Below are positions 6,520 through 37,982 of a stretch of 64,000 nucleotides of DNA, piece by piece (within the stretch, counting starts at the first letter, position 1; every line of letters starts with the position of its first letter). The DNA comes from Perna viridis (taxonomy: Eukaryota), in contig CM074518.1 of assembly GCA_037379345.1 (NCBI GenBank), positions 21,886,001-21,950,000 of the forward strand, read 5' to 3'. The translations under genes were made by a program, and so were the position numbers. The notes beneath the pieces are model-generated. The model had not been told where the DNA came from. It was given only the letters and a program-made list of their open reading frames with translations, and ran no database searches.

Positions 6520-7131
6520 ATAAAACAAGCTGAAGCATGTATTTGAACTAAATTAGAACTATTTTAAGTTGGCATGTTTTTGAAAAAGGGGTATTTTCAA
6601 ACTGAAATTTGTTTGGTTTGTTTATTTTTGTTTATTTTTGTTTTGTTTTTTGGTTTTTTTTTTTTTTTTTTGTCAAAACGATTTTTCTCCAATAAAATGT
6701 TAAAAACATTTTTCACGCCATATATGACAATTACCAAATTTGTCAAATTCATTCTTACTGCTTTTATTTTGAAAAGGTTATGTTACTTCATAAATTGACA
6801 TCAACTTACTTTGAAACACGGGTGATAAATTAGATAAATCCTTTTTTATAATATTTGTTATAACTGTGATACCACAAGCACGAAAAGAGTCTCAGTACTG
6901 TAAAATTTACTATAAAGACCATCTTGTTTTCCTTATTAAATGAAATTATATTTGAGTTAAAACATACACCCATTTCACTGATACATGTATAAACAAATAT
7001 TCACAAACGATACTGATTACAGTCAAGAGATAAACATATATTTTTAAGCGCCTTCATTCGTAATATATATATATATGTGTGTGTGTTAATCCCAATATTG
7101 TACAATATAATCAAAATGTATATGAGGGAAA

Positions 7132-7175
7132 GGGGAATTTGTTCTGAGTTGGAAACCCCGTTTCTATATTTAAAC
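7132..7175 (+). promoter_or_regulatory. Putative promoter of orphan Ro60 exon A: two kappaB-like motifs plus a TATA-like box
   Basis: ggggaatttg (7132-7141), tggaaacccc (7150-7159), then ctatatttaaa. The block is conserved in the duplicate at 10515-10560. Confidence 0.35.
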
Positions 7176-7289
7176 AATAGTTTTAAATTAACCAATGGTG
7201 TAATCTGAAATATTGACATGCGTTTCATGTTATGGATATATAAATGAACGAATGAATCGGTATTAGTGTTGGTCTTAATGGTTGATATA

Positions 7290-7543
7290 ATGGATGAAAT
7301 GGATATTTTTTGTGAACATGAAAACACGTCAAATGACGAATTTTCTTCGTTTCAAGCAATGGAAATAATTCCCCAAGATGACAAATTGACTTACTATCAG
7401 GTCAAAAACAATGAAGGGGGCTATGTGTACAAAGTTACTGACTTAACTCGAGTTTTGAGATTTCTCTGTTTGGGAACAGAAAAAGGTACATATTATAGCA
7501 AAGAAAAAGAGCTGAAGAGAGAAAACGCAGAATGTATCGATAG
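7290..7543 (+). CDS. RO60: Orphan Ro60 first coding exon ('exon A'); probable alternative first exon, with no second exon of its own
   Basis: Encodes MDEMDIF..QVKNNEGGYVYKVTDLTRVLRFLCLGTEKGTYY..ENAECID-R, the Ro60 N-terminal motif (RFLC.G.EGGTYY). It ends AG|gtaaat in phase 2. The start could also be the ATG at 7278 or 7299. The nearest Ro60 exon 2 acceptor is 19447. Confidence 0.8.
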
Positions 7544-10510
7544 GTAAATAACACATTTAACCACAAATGATTTGTTTCTCTTATATCAGAAACACATATA
7601 ACATTTCTAGCAGTTGTACGAAAAACATTTTTGACATTTTATTTAGGATAGGGAAAGATCTTATGACACGTCTGTAACTAATTAAAAAGATCATATCAAT
7701 ACTTGAATTATTTTGGTTTATTATATGTGTTACGTTATATTTGTATTGTTCCAAATTGGTAATTGTATTTAGCCCATAAGAACATCAAAACTTAAATGTA
7801 ATGTGCAAGGCATCTTTTACCGTTTTGTAAGCTGTTTCATTTTATTGGTGACAACCACTGTTTCAAATAGTGAAAATGATGCATGGTCATGCAGTTCCAG
7901 TACGAATGTTTCTTTATCTATCAATACAATAATATCCAGGTTAAACAATCTTAACACAGCAAAACATACTTTACTATAATATTTGTTCTTTCACTTTAGA
8001 AATAATATTTATAAATTGTCTTGTGGGAAGATTCAAGCTTATTTCTCATGTTTATGTTAAAAGCTTTTAAGTTTAAAATGGCGTATTACATAGCTATGGA
8101 AGTATATTAAATAAAGTCATTTATAATTAAATCTACAAAGAAATATTTCCTTAAAAAATACATGTGACCAATATTCGGTAAAAATATACTTAAACCGTGA
8201 ATATCGACTCTCCTTACGTACGATACAAAAAATATTTTTTGTTAAATTTAGTTTCTTTGTTTCTTCTTTGTTTGCTTTATGTTGCCATTTAGCTATTCAT
8301 TTTGTATGAGTTATAGGCTTCGTGTTTGTGTATGTTTATCTGTTTTGATTTGTTTTAGGACTTTTGTATTTTGTTTTTATTTTATTCAGTTCTATTGATC
8401 TTCTGTGGGGTATCTAAACATCAAACCAACATTAAGTAGGAAAAGCAAATTCAATTATATATTAGAACCCCCCCCCCCCGAAAAGAAACATCGGGGTGGT
8501 TAAGGATTTGTCAAATATGAAATATTCTAACATTTAACCTTTGCATTTCACAAGAATTAAGACTGGATTTTCGTGTTTTGAGCGTTTTATTTCCATTTTA
8601 CATTTATTTGTGAAAAACCATAATTTCAATATGGATAGAACAATTTATTCCTTTCTATGTTTTACCGGCTTTTTAACTAATTAATGTAATGAATTCGGAA
8701 TAAAAGTCGTGGGATTTGCAATGAAGTGTTACAATATATGTTTATGATTATACTAGGTGTATACTCAATCACTGTAAATTTGTACAGCATATTATTGAAT
8801 GACATAGAGGTCTATAAGTTTTGTTTTTGTTGTTTAATTTGGTTCTTTTTATCTATGTTAAACTAAACCTCTAAAAATAAAAAAAAATATATATTTCTCT
8901 GTGACACACATTCTGTGTTTTGTTTAATAAATGAAACAGATTGGAATTTTCATTTCTTTGTCGAAAAATATTGTAAGTTCCAAAAGGTCCCGACGTTGTG
9001 TGTATTGTGAATCTATCTGGAAATGCGGATGATAGTCTTTTCATATCAGTTTTTCATGTCATTTTTAAAACGGTTTAATTGTTGTTCTTATACATAAATA
9101 TACATAGAAGTATGAAATGATTTTTTTTTTATTCTGAATTATATAATTATGAGAAATTCAGATATATTTAGTAGGTTTTTTTTTAAATTTGTGATTGTTT
9201 TCTTCCTGATAATGTTTTGTTTGCATTGCTTTGCTGTTTTTATTGTTTTCGTTTTTGTTTTTTATTTTTATTTTTTTATGCCAAGTATGGTACACGTTGT
9301 TACATGAACGATTTTAATAAATTGACTCTGGAATTGAGTGCGTGAAATACGTATATGACTAGAGGCTTATATACCCATCACTTATTCAATGCATTCAAGA
9401 TAGATACAATAAACACTTTATGAACTTGCATTGTATTTCAAATGCATAAGAGGTAAACCGAACATGTTTTCTTTCAATACAAAATATCAGAAAGAGGTGC
9501 TTTATATTTTGATTAATAATGTATGGATGGAAACACATTATACATAAGTTAAGATTAGTTACTATGTAATATTCCTTGTCAGTATCTCTTGATTTTTGTA
9601 GTTTTTGAGGGACCGGTCAATATTTATTGTGGGAACCAGTGTATTTCATATTCTTCTTTTAAAAAATCCACTTGTCTGATTTTTTTGAATTTATAAAAGA
9701 AGGTTCATGTTTCATGTCAGTTGTGCAAAACAAATGTGCGTTCTTACTAATATATTAGAAATAAGACATGATTTGAAGTATGGATGCAACAGAGCATCAT
9801 TGTTTGTAAAATTAATGAGTAAGGTTTTAAATTAAACCTTATGCAAAAAAAACCCTCATAAATTTATTTTGTTCTAGATTACTTTACAGTAGTAAGCAAT
9901 TTAACTACTATCATGACATAAATAAGCTTGAACCTGCCTTCCGAATGTCATAAAAAACTATGTGAATTTTACATGGTTTGAAAGACTAGATTGTTTTGGG
10001 TTTTTTTTTTCCTACTTCATTTTTTGAATGAGTCTTTCCCAAACAAATTAGTAATTAAGGAATGGCTGTTATATTTTTTCCGGTCTATGAAGAAATAATC
10101 TCAATCAAGTTGGAAGAGTATTTGTTTTCTTTCCTTAATAATTGAGAAGCAGATGTATGTTAATCTCCTCATAATTTCATATACTTTGAGATTTTGGTGC
10201 ACGAATAATGATTTGATCAAATCTTTTTTAACACTTTCGGTGTTGTTTATTTCGCTTGCAAATAAATAGTTGCAGAGTATTCGAATTTAAAATACATGAG
10301 CATCATAGTATTTTTTTATATTAACAAAAAAATATGTTATGTCATGTTCATGTTAAAAAATTATCCGGTTTCAATGATTCGTATATAAGCAAAAATACAC
10401 ATGCTCCGGGTTAAAGTTAAATTATTTTAGAAATAATCCTGAATGCCTTCAATCGTAATGTAAATACTTTGTCTATAATATAATACAGTATAGTTGTAAT
10501 GTATTTGAGG

Positions 10511-10765
10511 AACAGGGGAATTTGTTTTGAGTTGGGAAACCCATTTCTATATTTAAACGATAGCTTTAAAATGAACCAATTACTGAACCGTATGCAATCT
10601 GATAGATATGAACTGGTAGTTTGAGAGTTAATGATAGTAATAATGGATTATAGTGCGTGTTAAATGTTACTGACTCAACTCGAGTTTGGGAAAAGAAGGG
10701 GTTTTATTTTAAAGCAATAAGAAAGAGTTGAAGAGAGAAAATGCGGAATATATCGATAGGTGAAT
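10511..10765 (+). pseudogene. Decayed duplicate of Ro60 exon A and its upstream region ('exon B')
   Basis: 10511-10580 matches 7128-7195. 10666-10765 (gttactgactcaactcgag..tttgggaa..aaagagttgaagagagaaaatgcggaatatatcgatag|gtgaat) matches 7434-7549 with a ~16-17 nt deletion and an in-frame taa. Most of the 5' half of the exon is missing. Confidence 0.8.
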
Positions 10766-12639
10766 AATACCTTGAAACACAAATTTAAGTAACTTTTATT
10801 CATTTTTAATTCAACTACTTTCTTTTTTTCTACACACAACAACGGTCTGGATATTATTCCAAGGAGCAAAGGAAAAATACTGTCGTATGTTTAACTGTTA
10901 TAAGATATTAGTAAAATTGTGTTTTGTAAGATCTACTTTTTTATTCTTTTTTATGCGTGTTCATTCATATCTATCTGGATCATCTGTTTCCTTTTCCTTT
11001 TTGTTCATCAATATTGAAACAAATCAAACTTTTTGTTCGCATTAACTGTAGCATCACTCCTTTCATCTGGATATAGTAAATATAGTTTCGTTTAAATCAG
11101 CGAATCAAAGTTCTTTCTTTAAAGTCCAATGCTTACTTTACGAACTATACATTTCCGTTCTATTGTTTCTGGTATTTTATTTAACTGTTTTAACATTCCT
11201 AAGGGAATGCTACTTTGGTATATAATTGTGTTTTTCCCAAATTTAAAAAAAATATTTCGGCCATGATAGGCCGTTTTTCAGTTTCCTTTCCAATCCCTTT
11301 TCCACATATTTGTGTTCCTCCATTTGTTTTCAGTTTTGTCATTACGTCTGAATGTCATAAGTATTGTGACGTCCAAAGTTAATAGTTGTTGTTTTGATAA
11401 TCTTATTATGAACCAAATCCATGAATTTAATTAATATTGAAAATATTACGTTTCAATATCATTTCATCACATTGCTGTGTATTGTGATTCACAATTACAA
11501 ACCAGTCTACAGAAACAAATTTTCTAATCAAATAGAAAATAAACAATGTAAGTGTATACATGAGTACAATAATACTTAACACATGACAGCCCGGTGATAA
11601 TTCCGTTCCACAAGTTTCTCTCCAATATATATTATAGCGATCCTAGGGTCGCATATGATATAGACCAGGGAACCAGATTAAATAATACTCTCCGACAAGT
11701 CGACTTATAATTACAAAATGGGTGCATGACAATTTTTAAAAGAAAAGAAAAAAAAATTGATATACAATGTGATAAAGCTTTTTGAAAATTGGCACATCCT
11801 CTCTGTGTATGAGAATAATGAAAAAAATTGGATTCATGAAAAAGATATTTAAAATTCTCGTATCTTTTCATGAATTGAAATTCCACGTTTGATTTTTTGT
11901 CTACACAGTAAATGTACAATTGAAAATCCATCTTGACTATTATGAAGACCTTTTGTGATAACCCTGTCACTTCTGTCCTTTATTTGAAATTCTGCTTTGA
12001 AGTACCAGTTTCTTTTTATACTCTCAATTGCTATTAGCTTTGAGATTGTGCATGATTTTGTTTCAATTTGCTTTACTTAAGCGGATGCACCAACATTCCC
12101 ACATTTTTTTTATTTCAACCTATACAATCTTCTGCGATTCCGTGTTAAGAGCACTAGCGTAAATAAGTGCTTGAATGAGAAAGATTAAAAATCATAATCA
12201 TTCAGCAACATATATGATATGTAAAGAACTATTAATGATTTTGAACAAATGCTGGATTTGCAAAAAAAGAAGGTCTTAAAAAATAACAGTTTTATTTTTT
12301 TAATAAAAAAAAGTTAATACATAGAAATGATTATGCATTTTGTCTGTATGTTTATAATATCTTGCTGTAAGTATTTCCATGTATATATTACTTTATACAA
12401 CTAGCATTTTCTTTTCCGTTTGTTTTGATTTGGTGTGAACGGTCGACCGCCTTGACACTTTTGGTATCGTGTTGGGGTTAACTTACTTAATGCAATTTAA
12501 TTGCAATGGAAACCAATTACGCTTGTCGATTTATTCCTCTAATCTTAAGAGTTCTTCTCCTTCAGAGTCCTGTTCGGTCAGTATTTTTCTAACAAATACA
12601 CTGACTTAGTTTATCCACGTCATGGATAAATATATCCTA

Positions 12640-12900
12640 AGAACTGGAAGTTAATGATGTAACCGACACTGCTTCCTCAATTTAGGACATACAACTCGAA
12701 CTTAAAATCCATTGGTCACCTAATTAATAGGTATTATGTTTAGAGAGACAATTTCAATTCTAAATAATTAACTTCTGTTATAAACCATCTTCTCCTACAT
12801 ACGGTGCTTACATTTCACAGTTGAGTAAGTGTACTGGAGCCTGCACTAGTGATGTCGATTTTCATAAACGTTGTCTATAAAGAACTAATCGCAAGTTATT
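12640..12900 (+). mobile_element. Decayed Penelope-like RT C-terminal fragment
   Basis: Degenerate coding remnants such as YPKxLEVNDVTDT and 'SPTYGAYISQLSKCTGAC', related to the ISQLIRYA segment at ~24503. Confidence 0.4.
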
Positions 12901-13799
12901 CTGTAACAACAGAACAGTATCGTCTAACTCCGAGATCGCTTCTTATTTTGACTCTTGTGTGCATTCACCACATAGATTTCCACCGGAACTCCTATGACCG
13001 GTACAAAAAGCAGGTTTGGCAGGCCATGAAACCTGATTAAACCACCATTTCATTTGAAACGCATGTACCAAGTCAGGAAATATAGTGGCCATTTTTTTCC
13101 TTTAGCCATGTAACCTATTTGTCTCTCGCCCGGTATATGGCTATTAGTAATTTTGTTATTAGCTTTACTTTGTACATCTGTGAAATGTCAACGTAATTAG
13201 CATATCTGCAAAAAATACTGAAAGAGAATTCAGATACAACATATATATAATAATGTATATTACATAAAACTCCGACTATAGTAAACAAGACGGCATAAAT
13301 ACAAAAAGAAAATCACAAAACACTAAAGCACTTGCAATATAAAATCTCACAACAACAAAAAAACTGTGAGTGATATCAGGTGCCCAGGTAGGGTAAGCTC
13401 CGCCAGCGGTCTATCATGTTGCAAGTAAGTAAAACCTAATAAACGTTAGTTTCCGTAGATTTTCAATGCGGTGAGACGGGAAATCTTAGTGGAGACGTCT
13501 TGTATAACAGAGAAATAAAAACCTTATATCCGACGAAGCCGACAATAAAGTAACAATTGTAGAAATGTGAACATGACCAGGACATAGAAATATATTTGGC
13601 AGTATTCTCACTATTAACAAACTCAAGAAACAAATTACATGCACGACAGAAAGATACTAACTATGAAATGTATTATCCATAGGCTGGACATGTTATAGGC
13701 TGGACATGGTATATCATCACTTAGCAAGGAAAAGTTTACAACTGGAAAGTCAAAATCATCACGATTTTCGTTTAGTTTCGATTTCGAATTAATATGTAT

Positions 13800-13920
13800 A
13801 CGTCTCTAAGTGTGACGACTCTATTCGCTGCACTACTCCATCGGATCATGTTTGATACCGGGAATATAACGCAAGCATATTAAGGTCTGAAAAATTCCAA
13901 ACGATTTTGGAACTGTCACA
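13800..13920 (-). mobile_element. 5'-truncated copy of the SINE at 43068-43320
   Basis: tgtgacgactctattcgct.cact.ctccatcggatca..ggtctgaaaaattccaa..gaactgtca is shared with 43079-43185. Confidence 0.6.
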
Positions 13921-16900
13921 TATACATATGTGACACCTGATTTTATATATATATATTCCGGTGTTCTCGGTATTCCAGAAATTCCAACAATTTTAAGTGC
14001 AGCTCAAGTGAAGCTTATGATATAGTGAATCGAGCATTATTCCCAAATATTTTTGACTTCAAATCCTTAAGTAGGCCTCATGGAAACTGTATTAAAAAAT
14101 TTAAGTGCATATGGAAGCTACCCACTGGAGATATTTACACTTAAAATTTTGTTGCGTTCTACTACAGAAAAATACGGGAAAATTTCCAGCAAGGATTTTC
14201 ACATTATAACCAGTCAAAAAATATTTCAGGATACTGCAGATCAAAGGAAATGAACATCGGGAGAGTTGTTTTAGGAGGTAACAAATGTATTTGAACAGTT
14301 TCGTTGATTATTCTGAGATATGATGAATCACTCCTGCCTGATTTTTAGACATTAGCCTTTGAGTATGCTTCGTTAGAATCAGGGTGGTTTTTCACAAAAA
14401 AAAAGATATTTCTACTTAATACTAGACATGCATATCTTTTAGTCATCTCTTGTGTAGTAAGTTTAGTGACTAAGGACAACCAGAAATATATAGACATGGA
14501 AACGTGTGGCGAAAAAATTAGAAAAATCGGATGTTGCGCAACTTGAAGAGTATGGGCACGTCAGGGTCTGCTGTTACGGTGTCAAATTCGTCATGAAAAT
14601 CTTACGAAGTCAAAAATGACTGCTGTAATCGCTTCGATACGGTAAGACTCTATCGAACCACTTATGTAGCTTGTCAAGAAACAAAAAACCTCTATATACA
14701 CGAACATGACCCTAGTTCGAATAGCTGAAGTTTTACTAGTAAATAAAATTGAGGACCAACTATAATGCATATTTAAAGTGAGAGCTTTACTAAGGTAATT
14801 TTGACAATTTTTTCAAATTACCTTGCTTTTGAAAACAGTCGTTGCTTATTTTAATATACAAAAACGGAATAGCTTATATCTGCCCACCGTGTCACACAGA
14901 AGTAAGGTGAATAACATTTTTTTCTCGCCTTGTCCTTTTTATATTTTTGGGGGAAATATTTATAAAGAAAGTAAGAACTAGCGTTTTAACAATACATATT
15001 TTACTACATCGCCAGTCATCTATCTCCAATACTGTTGTGATTGTCTATTAACAGAAGACATGATACAGGCGATACTTTCTGATTTATTCCAACCCATTTC
15101 AATACGACATCGCAAGAACAAATTGCAAAAAAAATACATATACCAAACAACATTTTTTAAAGTTGAAATTGATAACCGTGTGGAAGGGTTCTCTGCTACT
15201 AATTGAAATTATGGAAGTCGAGAAGGTTTTTCAATTTGAGAAACAACAGCCTTTTTATATTACTTCATGTTTGACAAAGGCTATAAAGGAGTTAGTAAAG
15301 TGTAAAGTATTGTCACTTCTATTTAACTCATTTCTATATATATAGGTTCGTTCGGCATTATTCGACACGTTGATTTCACTTAATGTGTGTCTCAGAGAAA
15401 ACCGAATGTAATCGTGATACATTAATTCGACATGTTGTTTTTATTTTATTTCTTTTCTAGTATTCCATGAATTATGTGCGATAAAGATAACTCCCATATT
15501 TATCCATTTTTCAAATAAAAATATAGTAAACTGTTACCTGTATATCATCTGATTAGAAAGTCAAATTGACTTAAATACATTATACCGATGCAGTCGGTTT
15601 TGAGTTCGCTTTAGCATTACGTGATATCAATCTAACCGATGAAGCTTACAATCTCGCATTTCAATGGACAAATGTGGTAATAACCGTGAAATTTAAGGTT
15701 CCATTGGGGGCATTAGTGTCCGGAATATTTTCGATGACTTTTACATATTTAATAATTTTTAATTCATATATTGAATAGTTGCAAATAGTTGAACCAATAA
15801 AATAATTAAAATACGAAATATACATGAAGTACAGTGATCAACCAGTTCACCAAATAAAATCTTAATCAGATTTGGTATTAACAGAGAGAGAATATGCGTC
15901 GGCTATCTTTTTTAAAGACAATTCCTGTTTCAAGTGATTCTAATAATATATCACTTCATGTCTGATCACATTTAATGTTAATAAGACTTCAGTGTAAAAA
16001 AATGACAGTGCCCAGCTCAGCATGATGAAAAAAAATATATCATAAAAGTATTCATTTTATCAATGAATAGACAAAGTAAAAATGCTGGATAGAGGTATAT
16101 TCTGGACACTATATAATGCAAATAGAATGATTACCATCTCATGTGGAATTTAAAATAATAAAATGTGTTTCCGTTTTAAGATTTTTCAAACTTAGTAAAA
16201 CATACATTCCTCAATGCACCCATTCGTCCTTTCAATAATATTTAAAGTTATTCCTAGTTTACTAAATCCAAAATGGTCGAAGCTGATATTTTTTGTTCTA
16301 GCACTAGAAATGATTCAGTACTGATAAATTTTAGATTCGAATTGTGTCCCTTACCACAGATGACAGTTTTTATTGTTAGTTAAAATATTGAGAACTTGCC
16401 ATTTTTTTATCTTCAAAATAATAGTAAATTTCTGATTCAGCTGGAATGCGTTGAATAGCGCAATCACTTTAGTAATGAATTGTACTGGTAGTTAAATTAG
16501 CAAATCCAATACATGACGAAAGTATTGCATTTTAGCGCCAAATTTATTTTGGTTACTATAAAACAAACAAAAAATACCTTTGAGATTTTCCCTCGAGTTT
16601 TATTACACCGTTTCTCTTTTCTATTTTAAAATACTAAAATCCCCACTTTCGATCCATAAATTATTTTAATCTCCAAAATTCTACTCTTTAGTTAACTTCT
16701 TATGTGTCAGAATCAGAATCTAAAATATTGGATTTATAAATATGAAATAAAGTCATATAAATTACATTAATTTAATTTTCCGATACAACAATCAATAGAA
16801 CTTGTTAAAAATGTCTACTGTAGTTGTATGTATGTCAATTATATATTATTATAAAAATTGCCTCTTTTTATACTTTTTCTTATATAAAGATATTTAAAGA

Positions 16901-16957
16901 AGATAAATAGTTAAACAAAGTCTTCACTGCTGAGTTCTTCAAGTCGATGATATCCGT

Positions 16958-16967
16958 GGAAATTCCC
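16958..16967 (-). promoter_or_regulatory. Consensus NF-kappaB site upstream of Ro60 gene 1
   Basis: ggaaattccc reads GGGAATTTCC on the minus strand, an exact GGGRNWYYCC match ~150 bp upstream of the ATG at 17117. Confidence 0.4.
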
Positions 16968-17116
16968 TAATCTAAAAATAGAAACAAGGAGTGTACACTT
17001 CATTCCAAAAGTTATTTCTGTTAGAAGTTAAAACGCAAAATAAGAAGAAATAAAAGTACGCAATAAATTATTTCGTATTTATTGCGTACTATTCAAAACA
17101 ATATTTCATATTTAAA

Positions 17117-17364
17117 ATGGATTCAGAGCTGCATGCACAAATGCAAATCGACAGTGATGAATTCTTTATACAACCTATGGGTGATTCTGTCGATCAAGGC
17201 ACCGAACTTACTTACGACCAAGTCGAAAACAGTACAGGTGGCTTTGTATACAAAGTATCAGACTTAACTCGTGTGTTGAGGTTCTTGTGTTTGGGGACCG
17301 AAGGTGGGACTTACTATGCCAAAGAGGTGGACTTGAAACGGGAAAATGTCCGTTGTATAGACAG
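17117..17364 (+). CDS. RO60: Ro60 paralog 1, exon 1
   Basis: MDSELHAQ..QVENSTGGFVYKVSDLTRVLRFLCLGTEGGTYYAKE..CID-R; donor AG|gtacaa, phase 2. Confidence 0.9.
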
Positions 17365-18462
17365 GTACAAATCGCTATTCAAATAGTTGATGTGATGACG
17401 ATTTTATGATCGGATCTTTAAAATTAATTCATTCATTTTATACAATTGTTAAAACAAAATATTATCTCTTTTCCTCTCGTGGATTAAATTAATTCGTATG
17501 ACTACGGGGCGCCGAATGGGACTTGATTTTTTTGTAATCAAAATCAATTTTGTGTACACAAAATTGAATTCCTTCACAACAAAATCATTTTTGTAGTACA
17601 AAACTATGTTACACAGACTAGTTTTATGATCTCTTCATTTTGTAATAACTAAATCATTTTTTTTTAGACAAAATTCAATTTTGTGAGACAAAATTTAAGT
17701 CTTTGTCACAAAAGTCAACAACATTGAATAATAAGTGATTGAAATAACATAAACACATGTAATGGGGAAATAATATAAAACGTGTAACGGGGATATTACA
17801 TAAATGCAATGGGAAAATATATGAACACTAATCTGTAGTTAATGATTTTAGAAAAGTGATCGATTTTTGTCACCATAAAATTCCTTCAAAAAAACATGAC
17901 TTAATTAGGTAAGCAATAAAAAGTAAGATGGATTAAATCTTACTAACTGAAGAAGCAGCGGGGATTTCATATTGGACATTTAAAAAAATCAAGATATAGT
18001 ATTCCTAAGGTTTCATTTTTCCCTTTTTTTAAATGATTTTAAGTCTATACCATTTCATGATTTTTTCCTAGAAAATATACTCGGGTTGTTGAAATGGGAC
18101 TTTTCCTTTTGCGCCACAACTCTTTTACGCCAGTACTCTTTTTTTCGCGAGTTTGCTTTTCGATTTCCATAGTACAATTGCGCCAATAAATTAATGATTC
18201 TTTTGCACCAGAATATAGGTAAATTTATATTTGTTATTATTTTTGTGCTATATTAGATGGGTGGTGTGGTTATTGTATGTTATTACATTAGCTGCGTGGT
18301 GTGGTTATTGTATGTTATTTGCAATTTTAAAAATCTCTTTGGCAAATTATATAATTAAAAAATGATACTTTTATTTTACTTAATAATGTAAATTTAACTG
18401 CGATTTTTTTTATCCAATTGTATCATTTTGTTTATTCTGTTACGCTAACAATTATATATTTA

Positions 18463-18700
18463 CCTGGTGTGGGGTTCTCGAAGCTGTCCTGAGATATGTC
18501 CAAAGTCACGTCCAAAAACCAACTTTAGGGTGAAGTTAGGATCATCTTATGACAATGTAAGGTTGAGCCTTGAAGCTAGGATGAAAATTGCGACTCGTCT
18601 TAACTTATGATAGCCTCAAGAACACGACTTACGACAGAGACGAATCCTAGTCTTAGGACACGTCTTATCCCTAAGATAGCTCCGAGAAACCCACCCCTGG
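18463..18700. mobile_element. MITE with ~23-bp terminal inverted repeats in the intron of Ro60 paralog 1
   Basis: cctggtgtggggttctcgaagct ... agctccgagaaacccacccctgg (19/23 inverted match). Confidence 0.6.
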
Positions 18701-19446
18701 ACATCAAATTATGTGGCATCAGTTATCTACAATTTTGTGTACACATAAAACGAGTAGTTTCAGAACACGTACTGGTACTCAAACGTGTTTTGCCAGTTTA
18801 GAAAAGTTTGACGTATTAGCTTTTGTAGGCAAAATTTTGAAGCATTTGAGATTAGATGTTCCTGCAATATTACAAGATCAAAATGAAAAGTTGACAATTA
18901 GTGTTTAAAAATCCGCAACTCGGAAAAAACTATATGTTAAGATTTTTAATACTATGTAATTATAACCATTATTAATCATAGTTTTAAAGTATCCTTTTAA
19001 TTATCCTATTTGGTTTTGTTCAACTGTGGAAATATAATTACAGATTTCATTGTTTCATCAACTTCCAGAGAAAGTTGAAATCACATTAATCTTTACACTT
19101 TAACAAAATTCCATAAAGATGAGGCTAGGTAGGTTATTTGTTTGAAAAACAAACCTCAGATCTGGTGAACATGACGAATGACTGAATACTTAGTCCGAAT
19201 TTTTTTTTTTAAATTGGTTGGGCACAATAGTATTTTGTATTTGTGACCATGATATCATATTAACAATTAATCCACAGTTTTCTTAGTAATAGTTAATTGG
19301 AAGCGTGACCTCAAATTACAGAATTTGAGAATTTTAAGTACATTTAATTTGGTGGTGAGACTGTAATCGAAAATACATTACGATTGAGTTGGAGGTTAAT
19401 CGTCTCTAGTATCATATGTTATCTTTAATATATATTTACATTTCAG

Positions 19447-20875
19447 ACTTATCATGGAAGGACGAGGCCTAGAAGTGGTTGACCTGATTTACAAAGTGAG
19501 CATAGAGGGACGAGCTTGTAAACAAGGACCGACGTTATTCGCTCTAGCCATATGTTCAAGATGCAACGAACCGAAAACCAAAGCCGCTGCATACAAAATT
19601 CTTAGCAGTGTTTGTCGTATACCTACACATTTGTTTGAGTTCGTTAAGTATTGCGAAGGTGAAAGTGCAGGAACGGGATGGGGGAGAGCTCACAGGGTCG
19701 CTATAGGAAAGTGGTACAATAATTTCTCAAAGAATCCGAAGAAACTCGCATATCTTGTAACGAAATACCAAACCCGTCACTCATGGAGTCACCGCGATGT
19801 CATTAGATTGGCACATGTTAAACCGGAAGATAACAAAATCGGTTTCATTTTGAAATACGTTGTTAAAGATATGGAAAGCGCACTTGTCGACTATCACACA
19901 GACCAGTCAATCGTTGATGTTAAAACTTTTTTAGATGCCGTTGAAGAAGCAAAGAAATGCAAAAAGGCTGACATCGAAAAAATGAGAGCTTTGATTGTTG
20001 AACATCAACTCGTTCGTGAACATGTTCCGACTAGTCTTTTGAATTCGAAAGAAATATGGGACACATTACTTCGGCTGATGCCCATGACTGCTACTATTCG
20101 AAACCTTGGGAAAATGTCCAACTTAGGTCTGCTTGATGTTGATTCTTTCGGCGAAAACTTGGTATGTTCTAAGCTAGAAAATTCGGAAATTCTGAAGTCT
20201 GCTCGGATCCACCCTTTTAGCCTTCTTGTAGCTTGGAATCAGTACAAGACAGGTCACGGCAAAAAAGGTAGCTTATCCTGGACGGTAAATGAGAAAATCA
20301 CTAAATCATTAGAGACATCTTTCTACAAATCATTTCAATACGTCCCAGCAACTGGTAAGCGCTATCTCCTCGCAGTTGATGTTAGCGGCTCTATGCGTTG
20401 CCCCGTAATTGGGGCAGCAGCAATAGAAGCTTTTGAAGCTTCAGCAGCAATGATGCTTTTGACAGCGAAGACCGAAAGTAATTACGAGGTTATTGCTTTT
20501 TCAAGGGGGCACACAAAACTACAAATAACTAAAGAAGATACATTACAAACTGTCCTTAAAAAGTGTACATATTTACCCTTCAGTGGTACAGACTGTTCCA
20601 TGCCAATGATGTATGCTATTGAAAATAAAAAGAAATTCGATGTTTTCATCGTGTATACCGACTCTGAGACATATCACGGTAAAATGCATCCATCAGAGGC
20701 ACTCAAGCAGTATCGTGAATATGCGAAGATTTTCGATGCTCGCCTTATTGTCGTCGGAATGGCCAGCACAGGGTTTTCAATAGCAGATCCTAACGATCCA
20801 TTTATGATGGACGTCGTTGGGTTCGACACGGAAGCTCCAAAGGCAATGGCAAACTTTGTCAAGGGGGAGTTTTAA
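19447..20875 (+). CDS. RO60: Ro60 paralog 1, exon 2 (TROVE + vWA, MIDAS intact); spliced protein 558 aa
   Basis: Acceptor tttcag|A CTT ATC ATG. Motifs: CRIPTHLF, GWGRA, TKYQTRHSWSHRDVIRLAHVKP, REHVPT, MPMTATIRNLGKM, ARIHP, LLAVDVSGSM, GTDCSMPM, YTDSET, SIADPND..MMDVVGFD. Confidence 0.95.
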
Positions 20876-22233
20876 AGTTCTGTTCGTTTGCATGGAAAGT
20901 TAGAACTAATATAGACATTAAATAACTGCCTTCTATTTGTATTGTCTCAAAATCTTCGGCCCGAAACTTACACTGTCACAGTATCAAATTTATCATATTA
21001 TTACATGTGACAAAATATTTTCCTAATCTCATTTTTCCCTTTGCATTCTTGTTAATCAAATACTTTTAGTTTTGAAAATTTTCATCTGAACTCACAACGA
21101 ATGTTCCTTATACCAAAGAACTACAGATTTAGTAAACTTGTTGACTAGTAAACTTCATCGATATGTATGTAAATATGTATGGTTTATCAAATAAATAATG
21201 AAGTTGTCGTGTTCGGGATAGCCCGACTCGTACATGTACAGTAAGTAAATATTGGAAAACAACCAAAGTCGCTTACAATGTATGTCCCATCTATATTAAG
21301 TAACATACCAAATTCGAAACCAATCCATTCAATGGGTGCCTAGATTTGTCTCTATCATTCCTTAAAATGCGAAAACGGCCAAGTCCCACAAAACAGGAAG
21401 TTGAATCGGACAGCACTCAAAACTGCTTACAACGTATGCTGCGTCTAAATAAAACCAAACATCAAATTTGAAATCAATCTATTAAATGGGAGCCGAGATA
21501 ATTTCGACGACAGTTTACTTACATTTATAAATCGTACTGTTATACATGTTGCAATGAATATATTTTTTTAATTTTATTTATATTTGATATTTTCCTGTTT
21601 CCATTTCCATATTGCTATTGGAAAGGATGTGCATAGGCCCCCAGGGGTGTAATTTCCTAATTACCACTTCACGTGGGTGCGCCAAAAATATGGGTATGGT
21701 TTTCATTAACAGTTATATGTTTGTTAAACCTGCAGCTATCCGATCATTCTGATTTGATGTCATAAACAAAATGTGTCAATTGAACTGACAAGAGTATGAT
21801 TTTCAATATAAAGATCTATCTTGATAATACAAACCAGCAGTCGAATTTATAGTTGCCGCCAAGATCTGATGGACTAATCGGTTTCATTACAAACTATAAA
21901 TACCACTTCTTATGAATATTCAGAGGCATTGCTATTGTATATCGGGAAACAAACGACTAACAAATACATACACTAATTTTAGAATGAGAACTGAAAAAGA
22001 TGTAAACCAAGAGTATCAAAGTCAAACAAATATTTAACCAATTGACTATTCAAACAAAACTTTACTTAATTAATATAAAAATATATCATTGCAATAGTTT
22101 GTATATTTCCGGTAAATTCCCCTTTTCTATTTACGTTCGTTGTTCACTTCTGTCAGTTGTTACGAAGTAAAACGACCAAGAAATATACAAAAAGTTACCC
22201 CCAAAGACGGCATAATCATTTGGACAGTGTATA

Positions 22234-22370
22234 ATGGAGACTGCATCGTCAGTTGGTGATTTCGAACTTTTAAGTCGATTTTTGATATATGGTAGGGAAG
22301 ACGGGGTGTATTTTGCAGAGTATAACCGTAATATTGGAGACATAAATAGATACACAAGAAGTCTTGACCG
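22234..22370 (+). CDS. Ro60 paralog 2, exon 1 (short, divergent; not in the ORF track)
   Basis: METASSVGDFELLSRFLIYGREDGVYFAEYNRNIGDINRYTRSLD-R. RFLIYGREDGVYF aligns to RFLCLGTEGGTYY. Donor CG|gtaagt, phase 2, in frame with the acceptor at 26284. Confidence 0.8.
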
Positions 22371-22435
22371 GTAAGTTCTTTTATCCATCAGAACTTTCAG
22401 TCTATTAGTGCTATTTACCAATTTAATTATCATCA

Positions 22436-23350
22436 TTTTATGCCCCCGCGACAATCGTCGGGGACATATTAGTTTACCCCTTGTCCGTCCGTCTGTCGCA
22501 GCGTCCGGATTACACATGATCATGGCTTGTCCGGCTATCTCCTCGTACAGTTTTTGAACTACATCTAATATATTTTACAGGATGTTTCCACACATGATGA
22601 AGGTGTGCAGAGGCAAAGGATTTTGATTTTCGTGAAATATTACGGATATTGGTGATAGTTACACTTAGTCATTTTATTCAGAAATATATAGATCATGGCT
22701 TGTCCGGCTATCTCCTCATACAGTTTTTTGAACTACATCTAAACTATTTTTTGCAGGATGTTTCTACATATAATGATGGTGTGCAAGGTCATAGGATCAT
22801 GATTTTCATGAAATATTTCGGAAATTGGTGAAAGTTAGACTTAGTCATTTTCATCAGAAATAGGGCTATATGGCTTAAAATCTCCTCATCTGAAATATTT
22901 TTTGCAGGATGTTTCTACACACAGTGATTGTGTCCAAGGTTATCGGATCTTGATTTTCATGAAACATTACTGAACTGGGTGATAGTTAGACTTTCTAGTT
23001 TTTGTCAGAAATATATCCCCAGCAACAAAGTTAGGGATTCTTTATTGGGGGTATTAACATTTTTTATGTGTCCGTCAGTCCGTTCGTCAGTCCTCTTTTT
23101 CACATCGCAAATAGTCTGACACTATTTTGCCAGGATACAATATGTAGATATGCGTATATTTAGGAATTTCTGATCCTCATATTGATCCCCATTTTTTTTT
23201 CGAGTTACGATACTGGAACAGTTTGTTATTGCAAGTCTTGGAAGGATTGAACTGAACCATCAGAGCCTGAGTATCACAAGTCTTGGAAGGATTTCTTACA
23301 GACACATTTGATTTACTATAAAAAAAAATCGTTACTAACAAATGACGCGG
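22436..23350 (+). mobile_element. Non-autonomous Helentron/HINE-like element with internal ~170-bp tandem repeats
   Basis: Starts ttttatgcccccgcga..cggggacata..gtccgtccgtctgtc. Repeated units gatcatggcttgtccggctatctcctc..aggatgtttc.aca occur at ~22518 and ~22691, with a degenerate one at ~22870. Confidence 0.5.
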
Positions 23351-24489
23351 GGGCTTCTGTGATAAGCAGGGCTTTTAGTTTTCTTTTTTGCTTCTTTTAT
23401 TTCACCACATGATATGATGCGTCGTCTGCGTCCTAGCAGATTTTTTGTTTCCGGGTATTTAATGTATCTGTATTAATTTGTACCGTGGGAGGTTCATAAC
23501 AATTAAGAATAGAATAGGGGATGTTTAAGTGACCTGAACCGCTTAAAAAGTGCTACAGAAACATGCATTTTTCTTATGTCCGGACATGAACACATATAAC
23601 AGGAGTGGATATGGCGAATAAGTCGAAGAGACAACAGCCCCGCCGGGAACAGCGGATGAAAAATGTCGACTCAAGGCTACCTATGGGTTATTGATGAACG
23701 ATGGATGAAGAAACCTTCACACAACAGGGCCGGCTGTAGCTGCAATATGCATAAGTGAATGGTTCCTTTTAACTTGTATCAAAAAGTGCCATACCACAAA
23801 AGAAAGGCTGGTATTGATTTCAGGAGTTCTGACAGGAACCATCTATGAATGATTAAGAGGTTAACATGGCCACGGTCACATAAATTTATTTTTTGGGGTT
23901 AGACATAAGTTTTTCGCATATTCTGACTGGGTAAAATTGTTTAGTATGATGAGATCTATTTGTAGACAAAATTTCGTTTTAATTCGTTAAGCCATGTTTG
24001 AGTTATTGCCCTTTTTGGACAGTCTTTTTGCTCTTTTTAATATTTGTTTTCTTTCAAAAATCGTCTCCTCTGACATAACTTGACCTATTAGATACAAACA
24101 CACAAGCTTGATATGAAAGTTCCTTGGGATATCCTGCATAGAACTATATTATGATAAGGCCGACAAATGTCAGCAATGGATCAAAGTTATCGGACGACTC
24201 CTTTTTAGAGTTATTGCCCTTGAAATGCGAGAAATGTTGCTTTTAGCAGTTGACATACTAGTGTTCTAGGGTATCCTGCATAAAGTGATCGTTTAAAATT
24301 TTTCATTGGCCGAATAACATGGCCGTTGTTACTAAAAAGTGAACATAGGGGTAAAAATACTTTTTTTTTGCTATTTTTCCTCAACTATATTTAACCCGCG
24401 GAAAAAAAGGAACAGTTGTGAATGACCTGTCATGGAGTAAACTTGTTTCCCTGTTCCATCTGTTCAAAGTCTTTGAGTAGATTGGATAG

Positions 24490-24975
24490 TTTAAACAGAC
24501 TCATATCACAACTCATACGTTATGCCGAAACTACGTAGACTTTTTGTATCGCGCTAGAATTCTAACAAATAGGCTTCTGGAACAGGGTTATATTGCTACA
24601 AGATTGAAGTTTTATGGTCGTCATCATGAACTCGTGGATCGTGTCGGTGTATCCATCTGCGCCATGAAAACCGATTTGTTCAGCGTTTCTTAGTTTTCCT
24701 TTCCTCTTTCGTCTACCACGGTCTTGACATTTTTATGAGCAACTCGGCGGGTGTTTCTAGAAAAGCAAAGGACGCTTACCCTACCGATGCACCTGGTCCA
24801 TGCTCCCAGTTTTTGGTGGAGTCCGAGTTACTCATTTGCTGTTGTTACTTTGTATGTATGATTTCAGTTACTTTGTGTTCTTTGTTGTCTATGTCTGTTT
24901 TCCATTTCTGGTTTTTGTTCCTGGATTGCATTCTTTTGATTGCTGCTACAACCTTGGTTCCCTTGATTACTCTTA
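24490..24975 (+). mobile_element. Penelope-like retroelement 3' fragment
   Basis: Remnants ISQLIRYA..LTNRLLEQGY..FYGRHHELVDR, followed by the family tail (gcttaccctaccgatgcacctggtccatgctcccag). An inverted copy lies at 33340-33800. Confidence 0.55.
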
Positions 24976-25397
24976 ATTTAAGAATAATGAAGATAAACGC
25001 TACTCATAATATAAACATGATATTCTAAGACGTCAGGCAGTATTGATATTTTTAGGAAGCCATTTTTAGAATGGCTGCAATTTGGCGATCACTTTCACTG
25101 ATTGCTCTGATTCCAATTATTTTTTTAGGAAACATGCTTGCATTTTAAGTTGAATGGTGTTCTGGACGGCCATTTTCCATGCTGCTTATTTTATACTTGC
25201 TTTGATTTCAATGATTGTTGGTTTATATAGTAAACATGGTCTCCTGAATTGAATGATGATGATGATGAAAATGTTGTATAGCCATGATTTAACTTCATTT
25301 TATGTTCTTTTTCAGCCATGTATATTAGGCTTATGCCCCCCTCAGACCCGGTAGAATATCAGAGCATAGGGTTAATGCACTTTGAAGTCATTTCAAA

Positions 25398-25748
25398 CAT
25401 TCTGTGTAAGAATCAGGCAATGAGTGGCGCACCATTTTTCTCAATTTGATCTTTTTTGCCTCAAACATACTCAAACACATCTAGAAAAGCTATTTGAAAT
25501 ATTGAAGCATTTGTGACGTAGATATTTTTTGACTGCTTATATAAGGGAAAAATTCGGGATAATTTTCCCGCCATTTTACATTTTAACTAAATTTGACTAA
25601 CATTATTATAAAGGCAAACTTTACAAACAATGGAACAGTAATTTCTTGAGGTTATGAGGTATAAATACTTAAATAATGCAATCAATTTTTCTTCCTCATG
25701 TGTCACACCATATACACATTATACCCGATTCTTAAACGGAGAAGTACT
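25398..25748. mobile_element. MITE, same family as 51643-52005
   Basis: cattctgtgtaagaatcaggcaat ... gattcttaaacggagaagtac, co-linear with the 51.6-52.0 kb copy. Confidence 0.65.
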
Positions 25749-26283
25749 GAACAGAATCTTAGGCACTCAGTTGAACTTACAGCATTCTTTAATAATTATG
25801 CTCTTTTCAGCATTTTTTGTTAAACATGACTTAAAAAAGCATGAAACCTTTACTTTCTTAGTTCATAGGGCATGGTTTTCCTGGTGAGCGATTTGCGCTC
25901 TTCGAGAGCCTCGTGTTTTGTAGTGATGTGAATTTCTCGAGAATTTGTAACACACAAAAATAAAGCGTTGCATGAACTGCAGCTATGTGTCTTGTTAAAT
26001 ATGAGATAGCCGATGAACATGCTCAGTATACACAATGTGCACTTTTGCGAAGAAAATCTAAGCTCCACCTCAAAGAAGAAACTGTCATGTATACAGCTGG
26101 AGCTGATGTTTTTTTTTTAATCCTGGTATGGTTGTTGTCTCTGACATATTCACCAATTCCATTCTCGTTATACTCATCGCCTTAACACGAAAGTGTATAT
26201 AATACATATTTATCAACACTGCTGATTATACTTAAAACACAGACTTAGTTGCACTAGTTTAAAAGAGTCATTTCTACTTTCAG

Positions 26284-27751
26284 ATTGATATCGGACGGTA
26301 AAGGAAAGGAAGTTGTAAAATTAATCAGAACTATTAGCAACGAGGGTCGTGCACCAAGACAAACAACCCTTCTGTACGCCTTGTCGCAGTGTGCAAGATC
26401 TAATGACATTCAAACCAAAAAGGCTGCATATCACGCTATAATAGACATTTGTCGGATCCCAACGCACCTTTTTCTTTTTGTCAAATTTGTAACGAAAAAG
26501 GGGAGCAATGGAGTTAGAGGGGGCTGGGGAAGAGCCACGAGAAAAGCTTTGTCAGAATGGTACAATCAGGAACGTTTCAAAAGCAATCCAAAGAGTCTTG
26601 TGCGAAAATGTACGAAATATCGAAAACGACATTCTTACACTCATAGGGATATTCTGAGGCTTGCGCATGTTAAACCTAAATCAAGCCACACCAGTCTTGT
26701 GCTTCAGTATCTTATTGAAGGGAAATATGCAGATTTTTATACTAGTAGTACAAATGTTTCAGACGGCATTGTTAATGAAACTAAAATTTTCATATTAGCG
26801 GTTGAGGAAGCAAAGCGCTGCACAAGAGAGCACATTGCTCGTTTGGCACAGCTAATTCGTCAACACCAGTTAGCAGTAGAACACATACCAAATAACCTCC
26901 TGGATTCCCCAGCCATTTGGCAGGCTTTAGTCTATCAGATGCCAATGTGTGCAATGATTCGGAATTTAGGACGAATGTCTAGTGTGGGGATTTTAAGGCC
27001 GGATTCTCTCGAAGAAAATCACGTAGTCGAAAGACTGCAAGAACAAGATAGATTACGAAAAGCGAGAATACATCCTCTAAATATATTAACAGCGTGGAAT
27101 GTTTATAAATGCGGTAAGGCCTTCAGTAGTGAAACCCCTATACGATGGGATGTCAATGGTAAAATTTCTTTGGCGCTGGAGAGAGCATTCTATCTTTCTT
27201 TTCCAACACCAAATCCCTCCGGCAAAAAGATACTTCTGGCAATCGACAATGGTACGAACATGCTCAACCATGTCATTGGAATGCCCATCGTCACAGCAAG
27301 AGGCGCAGCAGTTGCCTTGGCTCTTTACATGTCCAAGATAGAAACAGAAAACAGTTTGAAAGTTATCTCTGTTGTAAGCAATGCCACAGAGGAAATCTCA
27401 ATTTCACCAAACGATAATTTAGAAAGTTTATCCCGAAGGTTTGCTATAGTGGCCAGTTCTTCTTCAACAAGTGATTCGGCCCAACCAGTTCGTTGGTGCA
27501 TACAAAAACGAGAAAAATATGACGCCATTGTATACCTGTCTACGACAACTTCCTTTAGAACAGATAGCCCATCAGCTTGCATGCGTTATTATCGACAGTT
27601 TTCAAACATACACAATGCACGCTATGTAGCCGTTTCATTGTCAAGTAAAGACGGACAACCTATCGACTCCAATGACCAGTACATGCTCAGTGTCGTCGGA
27701 TTCGATACCGCGGCATTAAATGTTATTCTAGACTTTATAAGACGACCATAA
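26284..27751 (+). CDS. Ro60-like paralog 2, exon 2 (divergent; MIDAS degenerate); spliced protein 534 aa
   Basis: Acceptor tttcag|A TTG ATA. Motifs: CRIPTHLF, GWGRATRK, TKYRKRHSYTHRDILRLAHVKP, MPMCAMIRNLGRM, ARIHP, LLAIDNGTNM, MLSVVGFD. The ORF is uninterrupted. Confidence 0.93.
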
Positions 27752-29487
27752 TATCGTTCTCATTATAAGAAATTTGATGAATCAAAAAGAATTATGTGTA
27801 TGTTGAATAATGCGAGAAACACAAAATAAGGAAAACGTAAAATGAGCCTGATTCAAACATGATGAAAATAGATAACGGTGATGCTCACACCATAATATAT
27901 AGGAGAACCATTTGATTCTTAGGCAAAATGGGGGACTAGTATATTCTGGCCACGAATTTTAGGATAAAACAATTGTCTGACCCTCGTCATCTGGAAAAGA
28001 AAATAAATATTCATGTTTCATGGAGGATGCAGTTTTATAGCTATTACATTTATAAATTTTTACTGACTGATTAATTGTTTCGCTTAAAAAAAATCTTCAT
28101 GTATACGCTCTATCCCGAACATAATGCTTTATTGTTTTACAAAGAAGTAAAAATAGTTGTATTAACTATCAGTAAGAACAAGGAAGAAGTCAATAGAAAA
28201 AATTGGCAATGGAAGGTAGTTTTTATCTATTGTCTGAAGTTCACGGGTCAATAGCTACTAGGCTTCTTACCAAGAAAAGCACACACCGAGAAAACTGCAA
28301 CCAATTGACAAATACCTGCAAAAAACATCGATGCAAAAATTAACAGTCTCGTTATCACAGAAAATAATTTTCTAGGGAGAGGAATAGACTAGACAATTAG
28401 TGCACAGCCCATTAGTAAATTTTTAATGAAAAACTGTTATTTTATCGTTGTTTTAAGTACAAAGATACCAATAAATTAATATTCATTTTTGTTTTTGTTT
28501 TTTTTTGTTCTTTGTTCGCGTACTTCAAAATGTGATCTCTCATCAGCAGCATTATCTAGTGCAAATTGCATACATTGTATAAGGAATTCAAGATAAAAAA
28601 AATAAAGTATGTTCATAGAGTACTTAAACCCAAACCTGTCGAAACAAAAAGCCAAATCCAGCACTGAGTGTGTCCAAGGAGCTACATTATTATAGCTACG
28701 GTGTATAATACAAGAAATACTCACCTTTTGTGCCTATAGAGCTTTGGGGGGGGGGTTCAATCATGGCCTCGGTAGAGAAGACTGTCTTACTCTGTCAAGC
28801 ATAAATTAATAGGATAATATGTTTGGAGACCGAGTGGGCTGAAATGCTTACATGCGGGCTTTTGCTGGAAACCGGCTATACGCGTTAAACTAGAATGAAA
28901 CAGGGTTAAAGGTAATTGAAATATATGCCATAAGACGTAAAACCATAACCAATCAATATCATTTACTTGCGTCTGACTTTCTTGTGCACATTATTAAGTA
29001 CACTTAAAGTATCACAGGTACGACACGACAGGTCCCTCTATGAGCCTCTGAGTGCCCCTCCCCTTTTTTATCTGACAAATTTTCACTTTTTTTTCCTTCT
29101 TTCTATACAACATGAGTCACTGCAAATGCAAACGATAACACGAAACTGCAGTTACATCCACGTCCAGTTTCTGATATGTTGTAAAATATTACAAGCTCTA
29201 TTGTTCAAAATGATAGAATTTTTTAAAGAAAAAATATTTCTTACAAATGTTATTCCATGCCCATGTTCATTTTGATTCAAAATTAGTTTGACCTAAATAA
29301 TTAGCTAACGTAACCTGCGATAACCGTAGATGTATTATGACTATTAGTCTATTTTTGGTCAATGTAAACCCTAATATCTTAAAATAGAAAGACAAAAATT
29401 CTAAACCTGAAAATAGATTGAGTCGCACAGACTAGGAAAATAAATGATGCAAATCCGTCATTTGCTTTGTTAAGTTATAGCTGCTAT

Positions 29488-29621
29488 ATGGACACGATTA
29501 AAGATTTATATCTTGTTCGTCGATTCTTGATTTTAGGAAGAACTGATGGATCTTATTTTGTTGTCAAAGACGAAAATAGCTGTACAGCTACATTTAACGA
29601 GCACGTGGGCTGTATCAAAAG
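29488..29621 (+). CDS. Ro60 paralog 3, exon 1 (short, divergent; not in the ORF track)
   Basis: MDTIKDLYLVRRFLILGRTDGSYFVVKDENSCTATFNEHVGCIK-R; donor AG|gtaaaa, phase 2, in frame with the acceptor at 31339. Confidence 0.8.
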
Positions 29622-30398
29622 GTAAAACTATAATTTATTATTACAAATTCAATTTGTAATATTACAAAATGTGTGATATTTTATATATTATATTACTAAA
29701 TCAGGAATTTGTAATATTAGAAAATGAATTTATAATATTACAAATTGAATTTCTGATATTAAAAAAACCTTTTCTAATATTAAAAAAATGATTTTGTAAT
29801 ATTAGAAATTCATTTTATAATATTACAAAATATTGATTTTTGTCCACTTTGGCTTGCCATAAACATGGTTCTTATAATAAGGCCTACACAATCCTTCAAG
29901 GAGTCAAAGTTGTCAGACGACTCCTTGTTAGGGTTGTTGCCCTTGAAAGGGGAAAATGACGTTTTTTTTAAAACTATAATAGATAGAAAACAAGTTTCAT
30001 TGATGAAACGATCCTTATGATCAGGCATACAGGAGTCTTCAATTGGGTCAAAATTGTAGGACGACTCCTTGTTAGAGTTGTTGCTCTTGAACGGCGAAAA
30101 ATGACATTCTTTGCAATTTTCAGTTAATATCTTGAAAACTATAATAAATACGAAAAAAAAATCTTGATGAAATGATTCTTATGATAAGACCTTTAAAAGT
30201 CTGTATTGATCAAAGATGTAGGATACCTCATTGTTACAACTATTGCCCTTGAAGCGCAAAAATTGAACCAGGTGAGCGGCTCAGGCTCCATAGACTTCTA
30301 TTTCTTATTGAATCCCCGATTTGGTAAATATTTTCATTTCTTCTACCTATTGGCAATAGAAATATCTAGTCTTGAAATGAAATACTATATATTACAGC

Positions 30399-30432
<34 letters not shown>

Positions 30433-31338
30433 ACAAGTTGGCTCTTATCTTGACCTTATAGTTCGGAAATTGACTAACGATAAACTTTTCTTTAAAATTG
30501 AACTCTGTGACAAGCGCGAGGAGTTTTTTTCCAGTTGCAAACTATTTTCGTTCTAATGTACATGTAGTATCATTTTATTTAGCTGGTCCATTGTTTGGGC
30601 CTTTTGTCTTACAACTTACAAGTTTTGTTAGAGATGGCGATTATTACATTATTATGGTAAAGCATATTACACACAGTTTATTAGTATATATAGAGCATGA
30701 GTAACTTATATTGTTGGCTGGGCTATAGGTTTACATGTAATAATGGTCGTAATTATAACCTGATTGACAACTAATGGCTGCTAGTTTCCATTTTAATTTA
30801 CGTCAAACGACCTATATATATATATATATAGCTCCATCTATAAATAGATAATTTTCTTCTAACATAACAAATAAGATAAAATTAATTCTTAGGTCACGCT
30901 TCATTCCGTAAAAAAACTTTTAAGTGCATGTAAGGTCGTGTTTAATTGATCAGATACAAGCATAACCTTAGCAAGCAAAACGGTGGTTTTCATAATAGAG
31001 AAAGCACTGTTCAACCTTCAGCACAGTTACAATGTATTATTCTCCGCGGTTTTTTCGGATCATTTTTGTGTGTACTTTCATGTTTTGTGTTCTCTGTCTG
31101 TTGTCCTTTGAATTCGTCTTTCTGTTTTGGTTTTGTCTTTAGATTTCCTTTTGTTTGACTGTTCGATATTACATTGTATTACTTTTCCTTTGTCCCAGTT
31201 AAAATATACACTAATTCATTATTGTGTAGTATCATATGATGAAAAATTAATGTATTATTGACCATACTAATATATTCTAACATATTTGTGTATTGTAAAA
31301 GTTGACTGTAGTAACATTTTCATTTTTCTGAATTGTAG

Positions 31339-37770: not shown

Positions 37771-37982
37771 ATGGCTTTTCGAAATCATTCACAGCCATCC
37801 GGGAATCCAGTTCCTCAATGGGAACCGCTTATTGGACAAAGTAAAAACAAAGCTAAAGGGTATTCGTATGAAGTAACAGATGAAGTCAGACTGCTCAGAT
37901 TTCTTATTTTAGGGTCTGAAGGTGGAACATATTACACATCTGAGTCGGAATTAAAACGTGAAAATGTACAGTGTATCGACAG
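37771..37982 (+). CDS. RO60: Ro60 paralog 4, exon 1
   Basis: MAFRNH..PQWEPLIGQSKNKAKGYSYEVTDEVRLLRFLILGSEGGTYY..ENVQCID-R; donor AG|gtatat, phase 2. Confidence 0.9.

Follow-up and report, generated by a model that had tools for sequence, protein, structure and literature searches.

A distal duplicated first exon as a likely second N-terminus of a Ro60 gene in the mussel Perna viridis

Two first exons and one Ro60 body

A 64,000-nucleotide stretch of the Perna viridis genome (GenBank assembly GCA_037379345.1, contig CM074518.1, positions 21,886,001 to 21,950,000 of the forward strand; hereafter the window, in whose own numbering positions are given) contains a tandem array of genes for Ro60, an RNA-quality-control protein whose family is expanded in mussels. 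Our results indicated that exon A, an isolated exon upstream of the first of these genes (paralog 1), is very probably a live duplicated coding exon that is joined over 11.9 kb to the second exon of paralog 1, likely has its own promoter and would supply a second Ro60 N-terminus. The coding part of exon A, the distal alternative first exon (7290..7543, + strand), is an open frame of 85 codons with the donor AG/GTAAAT, and that of exon 1, the proximal first exon of paralog 1 (17117..17364, + strand), has 83 codons and the donor AG/GTACAA. They are tandem homologous coding first exons, and their donors have the same phase. The coding part of the shared exon 2 (19447..20875, + strand) begins behind the acceptor TTTCAG/AC at 19446/19447, ends with the stop TAA at 20873-20875 and encodes 475 amino acids with the architecture of Ro60/TROVE2, namely a TROVE ring and the Ro60 vWA domain. 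Both PF05731 and PF25045 were above their cut-offs on exon 2, and a Pfam search gave no match on exon A alone or exon 1 alone. The exon-A isoform would lack a GT..AG intron of 11,903 nucleotides (7544..19446, + strand), which contains exon 1 and a decayed copy of exon A named A', and the exon-1 isoform one of 2,082 nucleotides (17365..19446, + strand, GT..AG).

The preliminary description of this DNA, made from the letters alone, had noticed the open frame, ATG and good donor of exon A, had found no exon-2 remnant before 19447 and had proposed an in-frame splice from 7543 to 19447 giving 560 amino acids, and all of these points were upheld. No exon-2 remnant was detected in 7544-19446 by the tblastn search that it had suggested, by blastn or by a 92-sequence hidden Markov model, and exon A has no body of its own in this assembly. 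The spliced products come by arithmetic to 560 amino acids via exon A and 558 via exon 1. Exon A has three in-frame ATGs (7278, 7290 and 7299), the last two with a purine at -3 and G at +4, and its product could therefore have 564, 560 or 557 amino acids.

The splice from exon A to exon 2, for which the preliminary description had called for a search of transcript data, was found in assembled contigs of sequencing runs. Twenty of the 24 runs listed, from 8 studies, contain at least half the sequence words of 7100-7544; the other four contain almost none and are no evidence either way. Four runs, one from each of 4 studies, were aligned to 6900-21200, and all four had the joint 7541>19445, which with the cut shifted by two letters is 7543^19447 (GT..AG), as well as the joint 17364^19447. 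Each first exon is thus spliced separately to the shared exon 2 in contigs that are RNA by our guess. The lengths of the junction records (329=299+30, 367=337+30, 367=320+47 and 913=883+30) equal the sums of the exon-A and exon-2 parts, so that no letters lie between the two exons. Depth was zero in the bins 9285-9761, 15963-16439 and 16440-16916 in all four runs, and the runs comprise 45-98 million letters against a genome of 723 million bases; the empty intronic bins and the small size show that the runs behave as RNA and not as DNA. In every run the contigs over exon 2 were single and unbranched, were 1515-2301 letters long and showed no more than three differences, and contigs of the 3' untranslated region extended beyond 21200 in three of the four. 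The depths of the exon-A and exon-1 junction contigs were 20/57.7, 19.1/23.7, 18.2/101.3 and 5.28/114.8, which puts exon A at 4-45% of the summed depth, a poor measure of level that was not used as expression. No variants were listed within the coding part of exon A in the four runs. Run X1 carried an exon-1 allele with variants at 17204, 17222 and 17293, two of which change an amino acid (E>K, V>I) while one is silent.

The 5' ends of these contigs bear on the promoters. In three runs each, and without foreign 5' letters, the exon-A junction contigs began at 7205, 7222 and 7243 and the exon-1 contigs at 17105, 17116 and 17119; these starts fit a separate promoter for each first exon, which we infer, but contigs cannot map a start. 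A perfect inverted repeat (17055..17090, no strand assigned, 14-bp arms and an 8-nucleotide loop), the only one in the window with arms of at least 12 and a pattern present at one place in the genome, lies just 5' of the earliest exon-1 contig starts, with its 3' end 26 bases before the exon-1 ATG, and could be a promoter palindrome or a hairpin of the 5' untranslated region. We considered it improbable that exon A and exon 1 are instead mutually exclusive internal exons behind one shared non-coding exon and promoter, or that read-through out of the gene upstream leads into exon A. Such an arrangement would suit the junction contig of run X1, which includes the stretch 5' of exon A (6900..7289, + strand) and reaches past 6900, and the upstream Ig/TSP1 gene lies on the same strand; vertebrate RO60, moreover, has a non-coding first exon. 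It is opposed by the contig starts, which vary in position and lack foreign letters, by the fact that no joint into either first exon was listed within 6900-21200, and by the 60 bases 5' of the exon-1 ATG, where no AG occurs.

Divergence, relatives and structure of exon A

Exon A and exon 1 are strongly diverged at silent sites. Of the 53 codons in their core, 40 encode the same residue in both exons, and in 22 of these the codons differ, all eight synonymous pairs named in the preliminary description included; the peptide DLTRVLRFLCLGTE, which it had reported as unchanged, is indeed identical between the two exons. The core differences amounted to 27.7 synonymous and 21.3 non-synonymous, giving proportions of 0.74 (pS, near saturation) and 0.18 (pN) and a pN/pS of 0.24 (bootstrap 0.12-0.40). 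The longer end branch of exon A in the tree points to a constraint weaker than, or different from, that on exon 1. When neutral decay was simulated with indels uncounted, the share of copies free of stops fell to 24%, 8% and 3% at substitution levels of 10%, 20% and 30%; with so few neutral copies keeping an open frame, exon A is unlikely to be dead.

A dead copy is available for comparison. A' (10352..10785, + strand), which had been overlooked in the preliminary description, aligns with 6956-7569, that is with exon A together with its upstream DNA, which implies that at least one duplication here took upstream DNA along with a first exon and left exon 2 behind. It has a large deletion directly after ATGGAT, further indels and frameshifts and one stop, and its donor is intact, with the GT retained at 10760; no splice joint from A' was listed in the four runs, although contigs do not show absence. 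We rated as very improbable the explanation that exon A is a leftover without function, transcribed and spliced by default. The long branch of exon A, its junction-contig depth below that of exon 1 in all four runs (a poor measure of level) and a low pN/pS that could be inherited would agree with a leftover, but exon A keeps an intact frame whereas its sister A' carries a stop and deletions, the simulation leaves few neutral copies open, and intact X2-type exons are annotated in four Mytilus species.

The closest named match of exon 2 was the M. californianus RO60-like isoform X1, at 81% identity; its cluster has 16 members, and the comparisons rest on the 15 listed. RefSeq isoform pairs X1/X2 in M. 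californianus, M. edulis, M. trossulus and M. galloprovincialis (XP_052066124/5, XP_071182053/4, XP_063401164/5 and XP_076114119/20/21) have differing first exons and no mismatch over the last 475 amino acids. The third M. galloprovincialis model, X3, has a first exon that is a variant of that of X2, and M. coruscus had only an X1-type model among the members listed. With the relic A' in Perna and the X2 and X3 exons in M. galloprovincialis, A-type exons appear to have been born and lost repeatedly.

Exon 1 is 70-72% identical to the Mytilus X1 exons and 59-65% to the X2 exons. In a 19-row tree restricted to paralog-1-type exons, with the L003 group as outgroup and distant rows omitted, exon A grouped with the four X2 exons and P0242 with support of 81/88. 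Exon A also has Lys65 (7482-7484) in a column that aligns with residue 43, a Gly, of human RO60; in the other Ro60 rows this column holds Gly in 64 of 83 and Lys in 1 of 83 (8 Mytilus orthologue rows omitted beforehand, 1 row gapped), and Lys recurs in two RefSeq X2 exons and in P0240, P0241 and P0242. Exon A probably corresponds to the Mytilus X2 first exon as a putative orthologue, and by our own estimate one old origin of the two is probable, with repeated independent duplication as the possible alternative. When exon A was searched by itself against longer proteins, a weak search, none of the 24 candidates passed.

The same Mytilus data bear on the view that exon A is part of a complete fifth gene, with a near-identical exon 2 that the assembly collapsed or this haplotype lost, a view for which the preliminary description had proposed looking at other species. 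We gave this very little credence, on indirect grounds: Ro60 genes do stand in tandem at this locus and another Ro60 locus holds a 7.4-kb tandem copy of 100% identity, itself maybe an assembly flaw, but both joints enter one exon-2 sequence in the single unbranched contigs of all four runs, the four Mytilus assemblies show the same model with one body, only one of the 9 genome matches is a paralog-1-type exon 2, and the synonymous saturation of the first exons means that a twin exon 2 would have required constant gene conversion.

What exon A would encode was examined with a structure model of the M. californianus X2 isoform as a stand-in. The model had a mean pLDDT (predicted local distance difference test) of 88.2, with residues 1-18 and 62-68 below 50, and matched Xenopus Ro60 with a TM (template modeling) score of 0.90; the strands of the model span 34-36 and 42-45, its helices 48-58 and 74-85. 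In Xenopus Ro60 the N-terminus forms two β-strands with the vWFA domain and likely aids closure of the ring, according to the accessible part of PMC12135203. The variable exon therefore likely carries a disordered acidic tail, a ring-closing β-hairpin on the vWA domain, the first helices and a flexible loop. Any effect of the first-exon differences on RNA binding is conjecture. PMC11277228 describes what Ro60 does in general, and its accessible part mentions no Ro60 isoform.

Proposed mechanism and significance

A possible course of events is as follows. A segment with promoter and first exon would have been duplicated, probably before Perna and Mytilus split. Transcripts from the distal promoter would run across both A' and exon 1. 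The latter, likely lacking a usable splice acceptor, would be skipped, and the donor of exon A would take the exon-2 acceptor at 19447. The missing AG upstream of its ATG likely keeps exon 1 from being treated as an internal exon. A cap-proximal splice rule is known in protocadherin. The main gain would likely be regulatory, a second promoter or expression pattern for other tissues or stress, and a lesser one may be a retuned protein and ring, including the flexible loop with its rare Gly-to-Lys change.

Several observations weigh against exon A as a functional alternative first exon of old origin. None of the runs is recorded as RNA, and all are contigs, which are blind to start, strand and level. 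The exon-A contig of run X1 continues for at least 243 letters past 6900, which makes a long leader, read-through or a further upstream exon possible; if colinear, this extension would run as far as 6657, within the T-tract 6654-6671. A pairwise pN/pS cannot assign selection to the branch of exon A itself, and its end branch is long, 0.47 compared with 0.29 for exon 1. The identity of exon A barely discriminates between the Mytilus exons (59-60% to X2, 56-59% to X1), and the RefSeq isoforms X1 and X2 are predictions. A 34-row tree of first exons left exon A unplaced, the branch joining it to X2 in the 19-row tree was not starred, and the AU (approximately unbiased) test rejected neither the pairing of exon A with its own exon 1 (p 0.255) nor that of Mytilus X1 with X2 (p 0.137). 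In addition, two of the four RefSeq X2 exons have Asn and not Lys at the Lys65 column.

A more far-reaching interpretation, which we regard as rather unlikely, is that mussel Ro60 is a cassette system in which evolving modules of promoter and first exon swap a ring clasp and a cavity-side loop onto one body. The outcome would be isoforms with differing RNA targets or differing ring opening under differing stresses. Such a system would be kept across mussel genera and may be restarting at a second Ro60 locus with twin first exons (C8:40.945 and 40.953 Mb); if true, it would be a natural experiment on the function of the Ro60 N-terminus.

With exon A as a second first exon, there would be two natural Ro60 isoforms, identical over 475 residues and distinguished solely by the part likely to close the ring. 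The pair would form a clean, ready-made test of the role of the Ro60 N-terminus in RNA binding and localisation, and the locus would add an invertebrate, non-receptor case of the variable-first-exon design with visible birth and death of exons. The surprise is modest, because the design is a familiar one and the Mytilus isoforms already appear in automatic annotation.

Other Ro60 copies and comparison with known systems

Three more Ro60 genes of the same two-exon plan follow in the window, paralogs 2, 3 and 4 (22216-27748, 29485-32815 and 37770-41393). Paralogs 2 and 3 are strongly diverged, with 36-40% identity to paralog 1, altered motifs in the region of the vWA metal-ion-dependent adhesion site and short first exons. 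Three further full-length Ro60 bodies lie on C8, the contig that also carries the window, at 15.67, 28.18 and 40.93 Mb, one of them with a broken exon-2 fragment (L016, two stops) just upstream, and a distant TROVE gene lies on C7 at 13.75 Mb. On C8, 40943509-40950889 and 40950919-40958299 are a tandem copy of 7,381 bp with 100% identity (L006, L007, L018-L020); it carries another Ro60 paralog's first exon, placed above one exon 2 only (L013), and reflects either a very recent duplication of that first exon or an error of the assembly. Several distinct paralog-1-type bodies with 66-71% identity among ENA/JGI proteins (P0009, P0011-P0016, P0019) suggest further expansion of paralog 1 in other organisms. 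An oyster "PARP12-Ro60" entry (P0222) was set aside since it looks like a fused model of adjacent genes; transcript-derived members have PARP12 or Ro60 domains, never both.

Upstream of the array, on the same strand, the gene at 1-2000 (L021) has by eye one TSP1-like and three Ig-like exons, together with small exons whose motifs contain Tyr, and its sequence resembles that of a cell-surface receptor. Downstream, on the minus strand, 45017-46947 holds a broken retroelement whose frames resemble, by eye, reverse transcriptase and RNase H, and 58928-61741 two large exons of a C2H2 zinc-finger gene. Rfam gave no match in the window, and hence no Y RNA was found there.

We found no published description of this mussel Ro60 locus in a literature search that covered sources other than subscription journals and supplements; the accessible part of PMC6215123 has one Ro60 contig, of unspecified paralog, in a differential-expression table. 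With the Ro60/TROVE2 proteins (PDB 2I91, 1YVP and 9NEP; PF05731 and PF25045) the products share domains, fold (by the Mytilus X2 model) and 46-48% identity. The Perna genome differs in having variable first exons and 7 full-length exon-2 copies among 9 matches; to our knowledge, vertebrates have one Ro60 gene. The Mytilus RO60-like X1/X2 genes resemble the Perna locus in having one body of 475 amino acids served by two or three first coding exons that are homologous to one another. In Perna, exon A has diverged faster, and the extra A-type copy, dead here as A', is annotated as coding in M. galloprovincialis.

Among more distant systems, the accessible part of PMC1885805 describes tandem homologous first coding exons of the same phase, shared constant exons, relics and exon birth and death in UGT1, UGT2A, GCNT2 and protocadherin. 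The likeness to UGT1 and protocadherin drawn in the preliminary description held for the layout and failed for the scale: two live exons and one relic are present here, not the large array of the clustered protocadherins, and there is no sign here of their stochastic choice in single cells. Nearest in scale in that source are UGT2A, with two variable exons, and GCNT2, with two or three. The variable exon of such clusters encodes a whole domain, whereas here it encodes 85 amino acids, of which about 53 lie in the conserved core. In bivalves, the oyster alternative oxidase gene is also similar in having a duplicated, alternatively used coding exon, exon 10, with one variant more diverged and stress induction measured (PMC5589949, in its accessible part); there it is the last exon, and here the first. 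The mussel locus is thus a small variable-first-exon locus of the UGT1/GCNT2 kind, a well-known design whose isoforms are already in RefSeq for Mytilus.

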